Shown one piece after another: positions 4,093 through 10,310 of a DNA stretch of 64,000 bases. The position numbers were made by a program, and so were the translations under genes. A model generated the notes under the pieces. It ran no database searches. It saw only the letters and a list, made by a program, of their open reading frames with translations, and was not told the origin of the DNA. Within the stretch, counting starts at the first letter, position 1, and each line of letters begins with the position of its first letter. Source of the stretch: Escherichia phage ManiMatter_Bas94; sequence record PQ850617.1; one strand, written 5' to 3'.

Positions 4093-5177
4093 TGCCACAA
4101 GATAATTATATTGACCCGAACGATTTTAAATCTTTCCTCCAACTGGATGACCTGAAGGGTTCTTTCAAAGAAGAACTTGGTCGATTAGAATCTGAACAAG
4201 AACCAGAAGTGGACATTGACGATGAGTTCCCGGAAAAAGACGGTGACGATTTCGACTTTGATACCGACCTTCTCGGTGAAAGCAATGAGCTTAAGTTCGA
4301 AGATGAAGATGGTTGGGAAGATCGTGATGAGGAAGGCGAAGTCGAAGAAGATGGGGACAACTCTGACGAAGGTGATGAAAACACTGAAGTAGAAGAGGAA
4401 GACTCAAGCGATGCAGGATATGAAGATGATTCTGCTGACGGTGAAGGTGAAGTCTTTGATGTAGACTATGAAACCGTTATCACCCTTCCTGATGGACGTG
4501 AGATGACTATTGAAGAACTCTCCAATGGCTATCTTACTGGTGCTGATATGGCTGAACGTGAAACTACTCTTCAGCGTCACATGGAAGCATTTGAGGAACG
4601 TGTAGTAGGTTTGAAGGATGTATTAGAATTAGCGTCTTTAGAAGCAGACCGAGTAATTGAAGATTACAACGGTTTTGATTGGGACAAGCTTGCAGTAGAA
4701 GATCCTCAAGCATATGTTGAAAACAAACGTTTCCTAGAGAAGTATACAGCTCGTCGTAACCAGCTTGAACAGGCTCAGATCCGTATTAAGCAGGAAGCAG
4801 CAGCTAAAGAGCAGGAAGCTTTCCAAGCCAAGAGCATTGAATGTGTTAATATTCTGAAACGTGAGATTCCAAATTGGGATGAAAACTTATATCAAAACTT
4901 AATGCAATACGCAATTGACTTAGGTGCTACTGAAGAAGAAGTATTGAAGGAAAACCGTCCGTCTATTTTCCTAGCCCTTCACAAAGCATACCAATTTGAT
5001 AAAGGTAAGCAGCAGGTGATGGCTAAGATTAAACGTCCCGGTGCTCCACGCAAGGTTGTGAAGTCTGATGCTGCAAAGTCTCGCACTTCCAATAAGCCAG
5101 ACAACGCTAAGGTTGCCAAGGCATTCGCAGAGGGTCGCGTTAGTCACGAAGACGCATTCAAATTCCTCGTAGATTAA
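4092..5177 (+). CDS. Scaffolding protein (putative)
   Basis: 361 aa, extremely acidic D/E-rich N-terminal half, helical C-terminal half, immediately upstream of capsid gene. Confidence 0.55.
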   Translation: MPQDNYIDPNDFKSFLQLDDLKGSFKEELGRLESEQEPEVDIDDEFPEKDGDDFDFDTDLLGESNELKFEDEDGWEDRDEEGEVEEDGDNSDEGDENTEVEEEDSSDAGYEDDSADGEGEVFDVDYETVITLPDGREMTIEELSNGYLTGADMAERETTLQRHMEAFEERVVGLKDVLELASLEADRVIEDYNGFDWDKLAVEDPQAYVENKRFLEKYTARRNQLEQAQIRIKQEAAAKEQEAFQAKSIECVNILKREIPNWDENLYQNLMQYAIDLGATEEEVLKENRPSIFLALHKAYQFDKGKQQVMAKIKRPGAPRKVVKSDAAKSRTSNKPDNAKVAKAFAEGRVSHEDAFKFLVD

Positions 5178-5218: not shown

Positions 5219-6280
5219 ATGGCTAATCCAACTTTATTTGTATCGTATGACCAGAATGGTAAAAAACTTTCTTTTGCTAACTGGATTTCTGTTCTGTCCC
5301 CTCAGGATACCCCGTTCGTATCTATGACCGGTAAAGAGTCTATCAACCAGACTATCTTTAGCTGGCAGACCGATGCATTGGCAAGCGTTGACGCTAATAA
5401 CGCACACGTTGAAGGTTCTCGTGCGGTTGATGGTGAAATGCAACCTACCGTAATTAAATCCAACGTTACTCAGATTCTGCGTAAGGTTGTTAAAGTTTCT
5501 GATACCGCTAACACCACCGCTAACTACGGTCGTGGTCGTGAACTGATGTATCAGCTGGAGAAGAAAGGTAAAGAGATCAAGCGTGACCTCGAGAAAATCC
5601 TTCTGTCCGGTCAGGCTCGTACCGACGTGCTGGCTGACCAGTACTTGACTAACTCTGCAACTGATCCTACAGCTGTTGGTCTGAACGACACCCACGCAGC
5701 TCGTAAGACTGGTGCATTCCAGTTCCTGTGTGCACACAACGGTGTTTCTGCTGGTGTTGTTAAGAAAGAAAATGGCCCTGCTGATCCGGATACTGGTGCA
5801 GTAACTGTTAAAGTTGCACAGAACGCTTCTAACCCGACCACTAACGTTGGTTTTGATGAAGCTGATATCTTTGATATGACTCTGCAACTGTACACCGCTG
5901 GTTCTGAAGCAGACATCATCATGATTAACCCGGCTCATGCTAAGATCTTCGCTGGTCTGCAAGAAAACACTCAGGGTTCACGTAAGCGTATCTTTGAGAA
6001 CACCAAGCAGTTCATCTACGAAGTTAACAGCATCACTGACCCGCTGGGCCAGAACTACAAAATCATCGTTAACCGTTGGATGCCTACCGATGCAGTTTAC
6101 TTCTTCCGTAGCGCTGACTGGACTCAGATGGTCCTGCGTGCTCCGAAACGTACTGAACTGGCAAAAGATGGTTCTTATGAGAAGTGGATGATTGAAATGG
6201 AAGTTGGTCTGCGTCACCGCAACCCTTATGCTTCCGGAGTTCTGTTCACTGCTGCGGGAAAGTTGGATCCGCAACAGTAG
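5219..6280 (+). CDS. Major capsid protein
   Basis: 353 aa, AGGAG RBS, canonical position after scaffold; followed by frameshift-linked Ig-like ORF. Confidence 0.7.
   Translation: MANPTLFVSYDQNGKKLSFANWISVLSPQDTPFVSMTGKESINQTIFSWQTDALASVDANNAHVEGSRAVDGEMQPTVIKSNVTQILRKVVKVSDTANTTANYGRGRELMYQLEKKGKEIKRDLEKILLSGQARTDVLADQYLTNSATDPTAVGLNDTHAARKTGAFQFLCAHNGVSAGVVKKENGPADPDTGAVTVKVAQNASNPTTNVGFDEADIFDMTLQLYTAGSEADIIMINPAHAKIFAGLQENTQGSRKRIFENTKQFIYEVNSITDPLGQNYKIIVNRWMPTDAVYFFRSADWTQMVLRAPKRTELAKDGSYEKWMIEMEVGLRHRNPYASGVLFTAAGKLDPQQ
6256..6262 (+). promoter_or_regulatory. Candidate -1 ribosomal frameshift slippery heptamer G_GGA_AAG
   Basis: Heptamer read as GGA AAG in capsid frame, 19 nt before capsid stop; the -1 frame is open from here through the Ig-like ORF. 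Confidence 0.5.
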
Positions 6281-6285
6281 ACAGT

Positions 6286-6798
6286 GTGACTGTTAGCCCT
6301 GCGTCTGTAGAAAGTCTAGAGACAGGGGCTACTCAGCAGTTTACTGCAAGCGCTGAGAAGAGTGACGGCTCTACCGAAACAACTGGCTTTACTTGGTCAG
6401 TAACAGGAGGCGGTTCTATCACTCAGTCTGGTTTGTATACTGCTCCGAGTGCGGCTCAATCCACTGATGTATCCATTACTGCGACTTTAGAGGGTGTTTC
6501 TGGTACAGCAACCATTTCTGAAATTGTTGATCCTGCCCCTACTATTGTAGCTAAGGGTCCAATTACAGGTAAAACTGGTGGTTCTTCCACTAACTTCACT
6601 ACCATGTTTACTGTAACTAATTCTACTGCTGCGGATTACACGTTTGTTGTAACCCCTACAGAAGCTGGTACAGTAAGCGCCGCTGGTGCGTTAACCTTAG
6701 ATGATGCTGCAAGTGGCGAAGTTACTGTTCAAGCAAGTTTGACAGCTGACCCGTCCATCAATGCAACATGCACTTTTACTGGTGTAACACCTGCTTAA
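6286..6798 (+). CDS. Ig-like (Big_2-type) domain; probable C-terminal extension of capsid protein
   Basis: 170-aa ORF in -1 frame relative to capsid gene, GTG as first possible start with no SD; Thr/Ser-rich beta-sandwich-like sequence (TGATQQFTASAEKSDGS...GLYTA). Confidence 0.6.
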   Translation: MTVSPASVESLETGATQQFTASAEKSDGSTETTGFTWSVTGGGSITQSGLYTAPSAAQSTDVSITATLEGVSGTATISEIVDPAPTIVAKGPITGKTGGSSTNFTTMFTVTNSTAADYTFVVTPTEAGTVSAAGALTLDDAASGEVTVQASLTADPSINATCTFTGVTPA

Positions 6799-6805
6799 AA
6801 TTAGA

Positions 6806-6835
6806 CCCTGCCTTCGGGCGGGGTTTTTTCGTTTT
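6806..6835 (+). terminator. Rho-independent terminator after capsid/Ig unit
   Basis: CCCTGCC-TTCG-GGCGGGG hairpin followed by TTTTTTCGTTTT. Confidence 0.7.
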
Positions 6836-6857
6836 AAGACCTATACAAGCCAGCGTG

Positions 6858-6866
6858 TAATGTATA
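6858..6866 (+). promoter_or_regulatory. TAATGTATA promoter motif (phage sigma-dependent, putative)
   Basis: Exact TAATGTATA 34 nt upstream of ATG at 6900; same motif recurs at similar spacing before other genes. Confidence 0.55.
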
Positions 6867-6899
6867 TTCTTTGTCTACATATAACAAGGAGGACAACCT

Positions 6900-7652
6900 A
6901 TGGCAATGCCAGATGTTCAATACCCCATCAATACCTATGGGTGGCTAAAGAAGGCCGTGGCCCTCTGGGCAGATAGGGACGATGATGAATTTGTTAATCA
7001 AATTCCAAACTTTATTAACTTTGCAGAGAAAGAGATTTATCGTAACTTACGTATCCCTCCTCTGGAAAAAGAAGTGTATTTAGATATTAAAGATGGAGTA
7101 GCTTACATTCCTCCTGATTACTTAGAAGCTCAATGGATGATGAGAGCCAAAGATGGTACAATCTTCCAAGTAACATCTCCTGAAGAGATTAGCTATCGTA
7201 GACAGCACGGAACAATTAATCCATCTCATTGGAATAACCAACCTGTTAACTTTGCTCGTTTCGGTAGTCGTTTCATTTTCTACCCTAGCATCGAAGCAGA
7301 TACTCCGTACTACCCTGATGATGGAAGCCCTTTGATTCCAGCAGAAAACTCAGTGATTCTTAGTTATTATGCAGACCCACCGGAGTTCCATGAAGATACA
7401 GACACTAGTGCTATTCTTACTATCGCACCAGAGCTTCTTCTGTATTTCACCCTACGTCATGCTTGTCTGTTTGTTCAAGATGATAACGGTGTTCAGAAAT
7501 GGTCAGCATTAGGAAAAGCTATCCTTGATGAAATGGTAGAACAGAATAAGAAACAAGAGTACTCAGGTTCACCTATCGCAATTCCGAATAACATGACCCG
7601 ACTTCAGAGCAGCTTGCCTGATATTTATGGTATTCGTACTTCTCGTGTATAA
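6900..7652 (+). CDS. Virion structural protein (head-tail adaptor candidate)
   Basis: 250-aa ORF, GGAGG RBS, first gene after capsid terminator/promoter. Confidence 0.4.
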   Translation: MAMPDVQYPINTYGWLKKAVALWADRDDDEFVNQIPNFINFAEKEIYRNLRIPPLEKEVYLDIKDGVAYIPPDYLEAQWMMRAKDGTIFQVTSPEEISYRRQHGTINPSHWNNQPVNFARFGSRFIFYPSIEADTPYYPDDGSPLIPAENSVILSYYADPPEFHEDTDTSAILTIAPELLLYFTLRHACLFVQDDNGVQKWSALGKAILDEMVEQNKKQEYSGSPIAIPNNMTRLQSSLPDIYGIRTSRV

Positions 7653-7661
7653 GGAGATAAT

Positions 7662-10310
7662 ATGATCGTTTATAATAACCAAGCACCTGATGCAGTGAAT
7701 AACGTTGGGCAGTTTGGTGCTACTGAAGGCTCTATCGGAGCTTACAAGCAAGCGGCAGAATATGCAGCTGATTCTAAGTATTGGTCACTGTTGGCAGAGG
7801 CTAAGTTTGGTACAGTTGATGACTTGATTGCTCAGGTTGAGATTCTATACAAACAAGGTGTTCTATTAAGAGAAGATATTGAAGACTTAAAACAAGACTT
7901 CATTGCACAAGATGCTCGTTTGATGAACCTCATTGCTCAAACTAACGCAGCTGTAGCTGATGCAAATAATGCAGTTGCTCTGATTAATCAGAAACTTGTA
8001 GAAGTTCAGAATCAACTCGACGTTCTGTTGGGAATGTCTGTTGACGTAACTACACTTCCTCCGGGAACTCCGGCTACTGGCTCTTTTAATCCGAACACTG
8101 GTGTAATCTCTCTGGGTATCCCAGAAGGTGATCCCGGAAAGGATGGTTCTGTTACTGACCTATCTGCTGCTCCTACCGGTACACCGGAGCTGGGGGACAT
8201 CGGTTTCTATGTTGACAAAGATGATAACATTGTTCACAAAACAACTCTCGAAGATATTGCAAACCTGATCCCATCTGTTCGTTCTGTTTCAGTTAACGAT
8301 GGCCCTGCGCTTGACGGAGAAGTTGCTCTAACGCTTAACAAAGAGACGGTAGGTTTAGGGAATGTTCTGAACGTGGCTCAGTACAGCCGCCAAGAGATTA
8401 ATGATAAGTTTGACAAAACAACTAAAACCTACCAATCGAAAGCCGAAGCTGATGCGGATGCTCAATACCGACAGGTAGGAGAAAAGGTTTTGGTGTGGGA
8501 CTCAACGAAGTATGAATTCTATACTGTTGCAGCGAATAAAACCCTTACTCCGGTTAAAACAGAAGGTCGTATCCTAACTGTTAACTCCCGTTCTCCTGAT
8601 TCAACTGGTAACATCGATATCGTAATCCCAACAGGAAACCCATCTTTGTATTTAGGGGAGATGGTAATGTTCCCTTATGACCCAGCTAAAGCTGTCTCCT
8701 ATCCGGGCATTCTTCCTGCGGACGGTCGTTTGGTGTCAAAAGAATCTGCTTTGGATTTAGGCCCATCCCTTATCAGTGGACAACTCCCTGTTGTTTCTGA
8801 AACAGAGTGGCAAGCTGGTGCTAAGCAATATTTCTCTTGGGGTAAATTAGCCGATGGCATCACTGATGCAGATTCTACTAACTATATCAATATCCGTCTT
8901 CCTGATTGGACAGGCGGTGAGGCTATTCGATCCCCTGATTCTGTAAAAGATAGTGCATATAAAGGTAATGTTCAAAGTCAGGTCCCTTATGTAGTCACTG
9001 TAAATAACCAAGCTCCTGATGAGATTACAGGTAACGTCAATATCTCCAGATCTATCTTAGGTGCTGCTGCTGCTGGTGCAAACTCTGATATAACATCTCT
9101 CGCAGGGCTTACAACAGCGCTTTCTGTCACTCAGGGTGGAACAGGTGCAAAGAATTCCAATGATGCTAAGGTAAATTTAGATTTAGACAGAATAGAGCAA
9201 GGTTCTGGAGAGACTAAGATCCTATCTCCAAATAAAGAAACCTACATGTTTGTTGATAATGACGGGTGGGGTTGTTACCGTACCACGGCTGGGTTGGTCG
9301 GTACTGTAGCTTTGTCAGTTGAGAGAGGGGGCACTGGAGCAACAGATGTTGCTAGTGCAAGAGATAATCTAGGACTTAAATCTCTTTCTACATTAGATAC
9401 TGTTCCAGTAACAAAAGGTGGGACAGGTGCTATCACTGCTGCGGAGGCTAGGTCTAATTTAGGTCTTGGTTCTGTTGCTACTCTTAGTAACGTACCAATC
9501 GCTAGTGGTGGTACAGGTGCTAGTGATGCTGCCGGTGCAAGGTTTAATTTGGGGTTGGGAAATGTTTCTACTCTGGACAACGTACCAGTTGCTAGTGGTG
9601 GTACAGGTGCTAGTGATGCTGCCGGTGCCCGAAGCAACCTCGGAGCGCTGAGTAACACTCCAGCAAACACAGGTGCAGGTAATACTGGTGCGCGAGTCCA
9701 ACATGCCACCGGAAGAGGTCTGTTTACTTTAGACATGTTTAACTGCTACTGGTATATGCAGCCAGAGGATACTAACTTCTGGGTTGCCCACGGTGTGTCA
9801 TATGCAGGGCCTAATGGCGAAGCCTCAGAGTATGGTCGTATATCTTACGCAATAAAGATTGCAGATGGAACAACAAAATATGTCCATTGTCTTACAAACA
9901 AAAACACCATCATTGATACAGGCGGATTTATCAAAGCGGCATCTCCGGTAGTTAACATTTATGCCAACGGTCGGTATGAAACGAACGATGAGTCTGAGGG
10001 GGTTAGTGTCATCCGGCAGGGTATTGGTGAATATCTGATTACCGGTTGCCTCGGTCTTAACTCTGATGCAAGATGGGGTGGGGTGGATGGGGGGTTTGAA
10101 ATCCCAACAGATCGCAACAAGCAACCTAGGATTTGGCTGGACTATGAGGTTAAAGAAGATGGTTCTATTTTAGTTAAAACCTATCACAGAACTCACCCAA
10201 CCTCTCCAGTTTTTGCTAGAAACGAGATAGAAGGTTTTTCTGATGGGGACCCTATTGATATTCCAAGTGATGCTTTTATCTCAGTTCGTGTAGAGATGCC
10301 AGCTGAGTAA
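7662..10310 (+). CDS. Tail fibre-like protein with tandem Gly-rich repeats
   Basis: 882 aa; repeated units ...VP(V/I)(A/T)(S/K)GGTGA(S/I)(D/T)AA(G/E)AR(S/F)NLGLG...; typical fibre repeat architecture. Confidence 0.6.
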   Translation: MIVYNNQAPDAVNNVGQFGATEGSIGAYKQAAEYAADSKYWSLLAEAKFGTVDDLIAQVEILYKQGVLLREDIEDLKQDFIAQDARLMNLIAQTNAAVADANNAVALINQKLVEVQNQLDVLLGMSVDVTTLPPGTPATGSFNPNTGVISLGIPEGDPGKDGSVTDLSAAPTGTPELGDIGFYVDKDDNIVHKTTLEDIANLIPSVRSVSVNDGPALDGEVALTLNKETVGLGNVLNVAQYSRQEINDKFDKTTKTYQSKAEADADAQYRQVGEKVLVWDSTKYEFYTVAANKTLTPVKTEGRILTVNSRSPDSTGNIDIVIPTGNPSLYLGEMVMFPYDPAKAVSYPGILPADGRLVSKESALDLGPSLISGQLPVVSETEWQAGAKQYFSWGKLADGITDADSTNYINIRLPDWTGGEAIRSPDSVKDSAYKGNVQSQVPYVVTVNNQAPDEITGNVNISRSILGAAAAGANSDITSLAGLTTALSVTQGGTGAKNSNDAKVNLDLDRIEQGSGETKILSPNKETYMFVDNDGWGCYRTTAGLVGTVALSVERGGTGATDVASARDNLGLKSLSTLDTVPVTKGGTGAITAAEARSNLGLGSVATLSNVPIASGGTGASDAAGARFNLGLGNVSTLDNVPVASGGTGASDAAGARSNLGALSNTPANTGAGNTGARVQHATGRGLFTLDMFNCYWYMQPEDTNFWVAHGVSYAGPNGEASEYGRISYAIKIADGTTKYVHCLTNKNTIIDTGGFIKAASPVVNIYANGRYETNDESEGVSVIRQGIGEYLITGCLGLNSDARWGGVDGGFEIPTDRNKQPRIWLDYEVKEDGSILVKTYHRTHPTSPVFARNEIEGFSDGDPIDIPSDAFISVRVEMPAE
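9491..9628 (+). repeat. Direct repeat (about 48 bp, period 90 bp) inside tail fibre gene
   Basis: cgtacca..gctagtggtggtacaggtgctagtgatgctgccggtgc occurs at 9491-9538 and 9581-9628, 38 bp identical. Confidence 0.6.

Follow-up and report, generated by a model that had tools for sequence, protein, structure and literature searches.

In Escherichia phage ManiMatter_Bas94, the end of the major capsid gene raises the question of whether the Ig-like open reading frame (ORF) that follows it is a gene in its own right, or whether it is reached by ribosomes that change frame shortly before the capsid stop codon and so extend the capsid protein. A sequence-only reading of the 64,000-nt stretch analyzed here (sequence record PQ850617.1; the whole stretch is referred to as the window) had proposed the latter, i.e., a -1 frameshift fusing the capsid protein to the Ig-like extension, and this proposal is supported by the register of the slip site, the open frame, conservation, the absence of an independent start and the literature. 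We consider it highly probable that the capsid gene ends in a -1 programmed ribosomal frameshift site, which gives rise to a minor capsid-Ig fusion protein. A GGGAAAG capsid frameshift that adds Ig-like domains has been published before for phages of this group; what is left is to correct the annotation, since two genes are entered separately in the closest GenBank records.

The capsid ORF (5219-6280, plus strand, as are all features below unless stated otherwise) encodes, as its short, zero-frame form, a protein of 353 aa and 39.0 kDa, and ends in TAG (6278-6280). It matches Pfam PF17236 (SU10_MCP) with 262.8 bits and the solved SU10 head protein (7z45) with E=3e-224, and the order of the portal, scaffold, capsid and adaptor genes is that of SU10 and YF01. 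Judged by these matches, ManiMatter_Bas94 is a phiEco32/SU10-like podophage with its capsid gene placed within a conserved module. With the Kuravirus-like phages it shares the full order of portal, small ORF, scaffold, capsid, extension, terminator and adaptor. The -1 frame is open, as claimed earlier, from position 6196, following its last upstream stop codon (TGA, 6193-6195), through the Ig-like ORF to TAA at 6796-6798; the part that lies 5' of the slip site (6196-6261) overlaps the capsid ORF and is not expected to be translated. Across the relatives, the overlap of the -1 frame with the capsid ORF is 7 to 154 nt long.

Near the end of the capsid ORF, at 6256-6262, lies the heptamer G_GGA_AAG, a tandem-slippage site for -1 frameshifting. 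The capsid frame reads GCG GGA AAG, hence the register is G_GGA_AAG, as the sequence-only reading had it; among its sequence statements, only the distance to the stop codon was wrong, which is not 19 but 15 nt, counted from the last heptamer base to the first stop base. It is the sole in-register X_XXY_YYZ heptamer of the capsid ORF, and its codons are rare there (GCG, 2 of 35 Ala codons; GGA, 2 of 23 Gly codons). Within the window GGGAAAG is under-represented, with two copies observed against 7.0 +/- 2.5 expected, and the other copy (42505-42511, minus strand) is out of register with every long ORF.

The heptamer is unchanged in eight distinct Kuravirus-like sequences and in two Privateervirus genomes, while nearby third-codon positions differ. 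Of the 13 Kuravirus-like sequences fetched, 12 have it together with an open -1 extension, the exception being SU10; the same holds for the Proteus phages P59 and Privateer, in which the flanking codons and the extension domains are not those of ManiMatter_Bas94. Its distance to the stop codon moves with that codon among lineages, from 0 to 15 nt upstream: the heptamer ends 9-12 nt before the stop in the other Kuravirus-like phages and 15 nt before it in ManiMatter_Bas94, where the sequence following the heptamer is TTGGATCCGCAACAG TAG as compared with GGTGGCGGCG TAA in the Kuravirus-like group. Owing to this difference, the zero-frame stop stands at 15 nt and the short form ends in KLDPQQ instead of KVAA or similar. 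One might suppose that the heptamer lies beside an open -1 frame by coincidence, with no functional link, and some X_XXY_YYZ heptamer would indeed be expected in register within the 82-nt overlap with a chance of roughly 10%. Yet the exact heptamer is kept at a capsid identity of 57% while its place follows that of the stop codon, the rest of the window is depleted of it, and two relatives that possess neither the extension nor a fused capsid paralogue (L010 and L015) also lack an A_AAG site. We give such a coincidence next to no credence; the comparative data effectively refute it, and the site is more than a product of chance.

In the downstream ORF, no start-type codon comes before GTG at 6286-6288, from which 170 aa would be encoded; in GenBank records of close relatives it is the start of a separate 'Ig-like protein' gene. 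That assignment would imply a free 170-aa, non-covalent decoration protein, made perhaps by reinitiation, and several observations are in line with it. The GTG lies only 5 nt past the capsid stop, making termination-reinitiation coupling conceivable, a start there retains nearly all of the first Ig domain, two genes are annotated in most database records (including those of LAMP, Bas92, Bas93 and phiEco32), and gp10 was regarded as a possible low-affinity decoration protein in the SU10 structure paper. The codon itself, however, does not look like an initiation site. As had been noted from the sequence, the ORF has only a GTG and no Shine-Dalgarno (SD) sequence of its own; the SD duplex at 6286 reaches -0.5 kcal/mol, as compared with -6.5 to -11.4 kcal/mol for the neighboring genes. 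Moreover, the GTG is lost in six of eight distinct relatives, being ATA or GTA in five of them (172-1, ECBP2, YF01, SGF2 and EK010) and out of frame in SU10. In those five phages the next start codon is found 35-128 nt past the capsid stop, within the first domain, and gene callers scatter the starts of the Ig-like ORF, with products of 110-254 aa. A free Ig-like decoration protein of the T4 Hoc or N4 gp17 type, by contrast, would be expected to have its own start and ribosome-binding site. Judged from these features, use of GTG 6286 as a start is very unlikely. A separate gene would also provide no reason for a conserved heptamer and a -1 frame open up to the domain, yet both are kept; in Privateer the extension begins right at the heptamer, with an overlap of only 7 nt, and sister phages carry the domain fused in frame to a capsid paralogue. 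We thus regard expression from a separate gene as improbable, and favor a frameshifted capsid-Ig fusion.

For this fusion we propose the following course of events. Most ribosomes would read GCG GGA AAG TTG and continue to TAG, releasing the 353-aa capsid protein, while a minority would slip back by one base on G_GGA_AAG, the P-site tRNA-Gly moving from GGA to GGG and the A-site tRNA-Lys from AAG to AAA. The slipped ribosomes would then re-read G6262 and translate the 178 codons of the extension (6262-6798, ending in TAA at 6796-6798). The computed product is 526 aa long, with a mass of 55.7 kDa, and its junction (...FTAAGK-VGSATVDSV...) is an exact match to the one predicted before. The predicted tryptic peptide VGSATVDSVTVSPASVESLETGATQQFTASAEK of the fusion begins eight residues upstream of GTG 6286, and therefore only the frameshifted product could yield it. 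The long form would be taken up as a minor subunit during capsid assembly and would present two tandem C-terminal Ig-like domains on the head, where they would probably bind surface carbohydrates weakly. We infer from the site and its context that slippage probably takes place in ManiMatter_Bas94; its efficiency may be a few percent, as judged from lambda G/GT, where this heptamer is also used. Two other ways of joining the frames were rejected. An A-run of 3 nt, as present here, is too short for transcriptional slippage, and stop-codon readthrough in this phage is precluded because the extension and the capsid protein are encoded in different frames.

The extension was described earlier as a single Ig-like domain; the Ig-like fold stands, but the number does not, since the AF2 model and Foldseek give two domains in tandem. 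The AF2 model is that of a well-packed two-domain protein (pLDDT 96.6). Domain 1, a Big_2-type bacterial Ig-like domain comprising about aa 1-88 of the extension (6262-6525), has strands from E6 to E85 with pLDDT >95, and domain 2 (6526-6795), a second, Ig-like beta-sandwich, has strands from E94 to E176 with pLDDT about 97. Domain 1 scores 19.4 bits against Pfam Big_2, under the cutoff of 22.8, while the aligned domain of YF01 scores 36.9 bits; domain 2 has no Pfam match, and its module is present in several copies in the translations of the longer extensions of YF01, SGF2 and EK010. The model matches two-domain Ig tandems in Foldseek, the top match being the tandem Big domains of LigA (E=5e-11). 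Since comparison of the extension sequence with the PDB returned only a marginal match (2l0d, E=0.032), the fold assignment rests on AF2 and Foldseek. On these models we confidently describe the extension as two tandem Ig-like domains. Homologous extensions in relatives comprise 89-543 codons.

Stimulators of -1 frameshifting usually consist of a hairpin or pseudoknot about 5-9 nt downstream of the slippery site or of an SD-like sequence about 10-14 nt upstream of it. At this site there is no classical stimulator at the usual 5-9 nt spacing, and an Rfam scan of 6100-6900 (E<=1) returned no frameshift element, only sub-threshold sRNA matches on the terminator. Two downstream hairpins may nevertheless be considered as candidates. 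Hairpin 1 (6274-6293), with a 5-bp stem (ACAGU/ACUGU), starts 11 nt after the heptamer; it is weak, and among relatives its stem is invariant, its loop variable and its spacer 11 or 14 nt. Its pairs never vary and hence show no covariation. Hairpin 2 (6294-6331), a 12-bp stem-loop, starts 31 nt after the heptamer; folding of 6268-6330 gives z = -3.05, and in eight distinct sequences 97.9% of the cells are paired, with two covarying pairs, one of them seen as U-A, A-U and G-C. This conserved hairpin is possibly a frameshift stimulator. The upstream SD-like candidate GGAG (6236-6239) was rejected, since 16 nt separate it from the heptamer and relatives have GGCG or GGTG in its place. A stem-loop enclosing the heptamer was proposed for SU10 by Mirzaei et al., and a comparable fold exists here (6248-6278, z = -1.05); we did not take it as a stimulator because the ribosome would enclose its 5' arm during slippage. 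The transcription unit of the capsid gene is closed by an intrinsic terminator (6803-6836; 10-bp stem and T-run), which follows the extension and not the capsid stop; in relatives without the extension, the terminator is found directly 3' of the capsid stop.

It might still be argued that the slip signal is a relic, with slippage so infrequent that the long form is of no consequence and a head that is effectively uniform, as reported for SU10. That phage appears to manage without a long isoform: cryo-EM and SDS-PAGE revealed no extended capsid species (PMC9965538), which is explained by a 1-nt insertion that, in the SU10 record, closes the -1 frame after 11 codons; in that record the Ig ORF sits in the capsid frame behind TAA. 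In the mass spectrometry table of SU10, 275 aa are covered in gp9 as compared with about 265 aa in the fusion, which alone is no proof of extension peptides. The lack of a strong stimulator at canonical spacing in the window, and the spacer TTGGATCCGC, which departs from the GC-rich GGCGGCG of other Kuraviruses, would also suit a relic. Against this, the 178-codon extension ORF is intact, is the same or almost the same in LAMP, Bas92 and Bas93, and is modeled as well packed. Furthermore, a broken frame is reported for no group member other than SU10 (PMC9965538), so that purifying selection is implied for the others, and bare G_GGA_AAG yields a few percent frameshifting in E. coli, as in lambda G/GT (PMC9965538). 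A decayed signal is, in our view, highly improbable, and a functional frameshift remains the preferred reading.

This reading agrees with published work on related phages. The GGGAAAG capsid frameshift was described for phiEco32, SU10, Privateer, YF01 "and other group phages", the group including LAMP (PMC9965538), which is 98.8% identical to ManiMatter_Bas94; earlier, a capsid frameshift was predicted for SU10 (CDS9+10) and attributed to phiEco32 (PMC4281155). The long isoforms of the Kuravirus-like phages (phiEco32 gp11-12, the long form of YF01 gp8) share with ours the PF17236 capsid, the heptamer and its place, the -1 direction, and both modules of the extension, with Big_2 first, at a DNA identity of 94-99%; the extension has 178 codons here and in phiEco32 but 543 in YF01. 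In Privateer two capsid bands were observed and the long form was detected by mass spectrometry (PMC7881722), and its GenBank record (MT028297) contains a joined CDS with a mass spectrometry note. There, too, a GGGAAAG -1 frameshift ends a SU10-type capsid gene and adds Ig-like domains, although the capsid identity is about 57%, the heptamer directly adjoins the stop codon, and the extension consists of I-set and Big_2 domains instead of Big_2 and a second module.

Lambda G/GT, reportedly shown by Levin, Hendrix and Casjens in 1993 to use G_GGA_AAG, offers a match of the signal itself: the heptamer is identical, as the earlier reading stated, the direction is -1, the host is E. coli, and a minor long product is made at a fixed low ratio. 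The frameshift rate is about 3.5%, as cited in PMC9965538. The proteins are unrelated, however, the lambda product being an assembly chaperone absent from virions and not a structural capsid subunit. In T7 and T3 (10A/10B), ribosomes that shift to the -1 frame shortly before the major capsid gene ends make a longer, minor subunit, which is incorporated into heads (about 10%, as cited in PMC9965538), with another slippery sequence and a shorter extension; the sequence searches made with our capsid protein gave no detectable match to the T7 capsid.

Other relatives seem to arrive at a capsid-Ig protein differently. In one (L011), A_AAA_AAG takes the place of GGGAAAG; among Aeromonas and IMG/VR relatives the site reads GTA AAG, and three of them (L006-L008) show a GC hairpin starting 6 nt after it. 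A second capsid gene, fused in frame to Big_2, is present in Salmonella phage 7-11, Cronobacter phage A24 and Aeromonas phage BUCT695. As in our fusion, a SU10-type capsid domain is there covalently followed by at least one Big_2 domain, directly downstream of a plain capsid gene; unlike it, the duplicated gene has its own start and involves no recoding, and the plain capsid gene ends in a terminator and lacks a slippery site. We tentatively propose, at somewhat less than even confidence, that the prolate podophage clade (Gordonclarkvirinae, Grimontviridae, Lahexavirus) obtains a minor capsid-Ig subunit by four routes: slippage on G_GGA_AAG, dnaX-type slippage on A_AAA_AAG (L011), non-canonical slippage on G_GUA_AAG (Aeromonas 4_4572-like phages and L006-L009), in some cases with the GC hairpin, and an in-frame duplicated capsid gene (7-11, A24, BUCT695). 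As a further part of this proposal, hairpin 6294-6331 might serve as an unusually distant stimulator within the Kuravirus-like group. In a non-exhaustive search, we did not find the four-route comparison or the distant hairpin stimulator stated in the literature on these phages.

For the annotation of these genomes, our findings indicate that LAMP, Bas92, Bas93, phiEco32 and most other records would be correctly annotated with a joined CDS of the kind given for YF01 and Privateer. Comparing the phages of the clade opens no new question, but it would illustrate how evolution exchanges recoding and gene duplication for the same protein stoichiometry. A C-terminal capsid fusion at a fixed low ratio would constitute a natural display scaffold, as does T7 10B. 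Possibly, the Ig-like domains displayed in this way influence the adsorption of the phage to host surfaces or mucus, which may be of relevance to phages considered as candidates for therapy.

The window covers the left end of the genome of a prolate podophage of the phiEco32/SU10 type (Gordonclarkvirinae), and its 5219-6860 region shares 98.9% identity with Escherichia phage JacquesWildberger_Bas92, 98.8% with phage LAMP, and 94-95% with phiEco32, SU10 and many others. The 353-aa major capsid protein encoded at 5219-6280 (Pfam PF17236 SU10_MCP, 262.8 bits) matches the solved SU10 head protein 7z45 (E=3e-224). Within its gene, the codons GCG GGA AAG place the slippery heptamer GGGAAAG (6256-6262) in the register G_GGA_AAG; it is the sole in-register X_XXY_YYZ heptamer of the capsid ORF and the same heptamer as in lambda G/GT. 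The -1 frame is closed on the upstream side by TGA 6193-6195 and is open thereafter until TAA 6796-6798. According to the standard tandem-slippage model, a -1 slip on G_GGA_AAG would give, by conceptual translation, a product of 526 aa (55.7 kDa) with the junction ...FTAAGK-VGSATVDSV.... The sequence-only reading, which proposed a frameshift fusion of the capsid protein to an Ig-like ORF, was correct as to the position and register of the heptamer, the open -1 frame and the junction; only the distance from the heptamer to the capsid stop codon, claimed as 19 nt, has to be amended to 15 nt.

Two copies of GGGAAAG are present in the whole window of 64 kb, where shuffled sequences lead one to expect 7.0 +/- 2.5. 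The copy outside the capsid gene (42505-42511, minus strand) is in register with no long ORF, its in-register frame being open for 4 codons only; it is not a frameshift site and hence serves as a negative control. The heptamer codons are rare in the capsid gene (GCG, 2/35 Ala codons; GGA, 2/23 Gly codons), which otherwise strongly prefers GCT and GGT. Past the slip site, codon usage changes: ACA accounts for 11/37 Thr codons and GCG for 5/24 Ala codons in the extension (the -1 frame codons after the slip, 6262-6795), versus 1/29 and 2/35 in the capsid (5219-6277). This change fits a region that is either translated far less often or separately acquired.

The alternative, adopted in the LAMP annotation, is that an "Ig-like protein" starts independently at GTG 6286. 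The anti-Shine-Dalgarno duplex energy at this codon is -0.5 kcal/mol, whereas four genes nearby have values of -6.5 to -11.4; the earlier claim that the ORF has no Shine-Dalgarno of its own is borne out. The position reads ATA or GTA in five of eight distinct relatives. The gene-caller products in metagenomic relatives are fragments of 110-254 aa, in agreement with the absence of a real start. Moreover, a strong intrinsic terminator (6803-6826 plus a T-run) is located past the extension, not past the capsid stop.

We compared 11 IMG/VR loci and 14 GenBank regions, following the frames mechanically. GGGAAAG was in register, 9-15 nt ahead of the capsid stop, in every Kuravirus-like sequence fetched (the window; LAMP; the phiEco32-type L001, L005 and ShigP1; 172-1 and L002; ECBP2 and L003; KBNP1711 and L004; YF01, SGF2 and EK010; L-numbers denote loci and regions of this comparison), and in all of these the -1 extension runs to 178-543 codons, the only exception being SU10. 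Across eight distinct Kuravirus-like sequences, neither the heptamer nor the GCTGC before it varies, in contrast to nearby third-codon positions. The Proteus phages P59 and Privateer, with capsid identity of only ~57%, carry the same heptamer abutting the stop codon, followed by 169 codons encoding different Ig domains (I-set plus Big_2).

In the SU10 record (L012:2541-2600; KM044272 ~8390-8450), one nucleotide is inserted as compared with all relatives (gacactgtctactg versus gacagtgtgactg); it shuts the -1 frame after 11 codons, and the Ig ORF comes to follow the TAA in the same frame as the capsid. The insertion may be a genuine mutation, in keeping with the lack of a long isoform by cryo-EM, or a sequencing error; the SU10 cryo-EM study, in which gp10 was handled as a separate protein, found no extra density, in agreement with the broken -1 frame. 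SU10 mass spectrometry covered 78.1% of gp9 (~275 aa, 23 peptides) and 50.29% of the 526-aa fusion (~265 aa, 22 peptides; PMC4281155, Table 2). Shared capsid peptides alone could suffice for the "9+10" identification, hence these figures are not independent proof of fusion.

As to possible stimulators of slippage, an invariant 5-bp hairpin (6274-6293) lies 11 nt downstream of the heptamer (14 nt in some relatives), and a 12-bp hairpin (6294-6331; z-score -3.05) starts 31 nt downstream. The latter is 97.9% paired across eight distinct sequences, with one pair found as U-A, A-U and G-C, a structure derived from the very sequences scored; given this, its distance and its location inside coding sequence, we rank it as no more than a candidate. 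Upstream of the heptamer, a GGAG lacks conservation in relatives, and Rfam gave no match at the locus.

On the extension, Pfam found Big_2 only (residues 6-82), below threshold (19.4 bits versus a cutoff of 22.8). An AlphaFold2 model built from an alignment of 30 homologues (mean pLDDT 96.6) has two domains made wholly of beta strands (6-85 and 94-176), and Foldseek ranks the Big-domain tandem of LigA from Leptospira (8gyr, E=5e-11) first in the PDB, ahead of other two-domain Ig tandems. Hence, the ORF is Ig-like, as proposed, but comprises two tandem domains rather than one. The second module, which has no Pfam assignment, is the repeated unit in the longer extensions of YF01 (L013:4547-6178), SGF2 (L018:1663-2718) and EK010 (L019:1663-2775); such repeats, together with an extra C-terminal domain that YF01 and EK010 share (...TSEDTKVTxRTDPGSxVFxTYxVKSGA), account for a roughly three-fold spread of extension lengths in this genus, from 178 to 543 codons.

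In relatives with a -1 extension but without GGGAAAG, the final capsid codons include a different lysine slip motif that is in register. In L011 (IMG/VR, 56% capsid identity; 4921-5055) this is a dnaX-type A_AAA_AAG, separated from the capsid stop by 3 nt; the extension in this relative comprises just 42 codons, is rich in lysine and proline, and is not an Ig domain. In Aeromonas phage 4_4572 (L017:4407-4690) and the IMG/VR loci L006-L009 (4907-4960), the capsid gene ends CTG AAG GTA AAG GCG/CCC TAA, with no canonical heptamer, and the -1 frame leads straight to Big_2 or I-set domains (89-170 codons). Together with a GC-rich hairpin (GCGCCC/GGGCGU) that begins 6 nt past GGUAAAG in L006-L008, this points to a -1 slip on the non-canonical site G_GUA_AAG. 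The 4_4572 GenBank record labels part of the extension a 75-aa "tail protein". Vp_R1 and L010 have neither extension nor lysine slip motif, and a terminator lies immediately past the stop. Salmonella phage 7-11 (L023:1-2485), Cronobacter phage A24 (L024:712-2816) and Aeromonas phage BUCT695 (L016:3501-5781) have a plain capsid gene, with a terminator at its end and no slippery site, and immediately after it a second, paralogous capsid gene in which SU10_MCP (254-274 bits) and one or more Big_2 domains form a single in-frame fusion. In these three phages, gene duplication seems to replace frameshifting as the route to a capsid-Ig subunit. With recoding in some lineages and duplication in others, the covalent capsid-Ig protein would be a conserved product of the clade, a strong argument that the extension is not a free protein.

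The capsid -1 frameshift mechanism is already published for this phage group. For SU10, slippage on GGGAAAG was noted to join CDS9 to CDS10 "as in phage phiEco32" (Mirzaei et al., 2014; PMC4281155), and a frameshifted minor capsid protein was annotated and detected in Privateer (Corban et al., 2021; PMC7881722). For YF01 and other phages of the group, LAMP among them, two capsid forms arising through -1 slippage on GGGAAAG, with an Ig-like domain added, were reported, the long form being lost in SU10 alone (YF01 paper, 2023; PMC9965538). Taken with this literature, the conserved heptamer, the lack of an independent start and the fusions in sister lineages support the frameshift interpretation, and we consider it very probable that the window phage makes the capsid-Ig fusion in this way. 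What remains of value is that the two-gene annotation of its nearest relatives should be corrected. The alternative routes to the same fusion across the clade, like the candidate hairpin downstream of the heptamer, are modest leads rather than discoveries.
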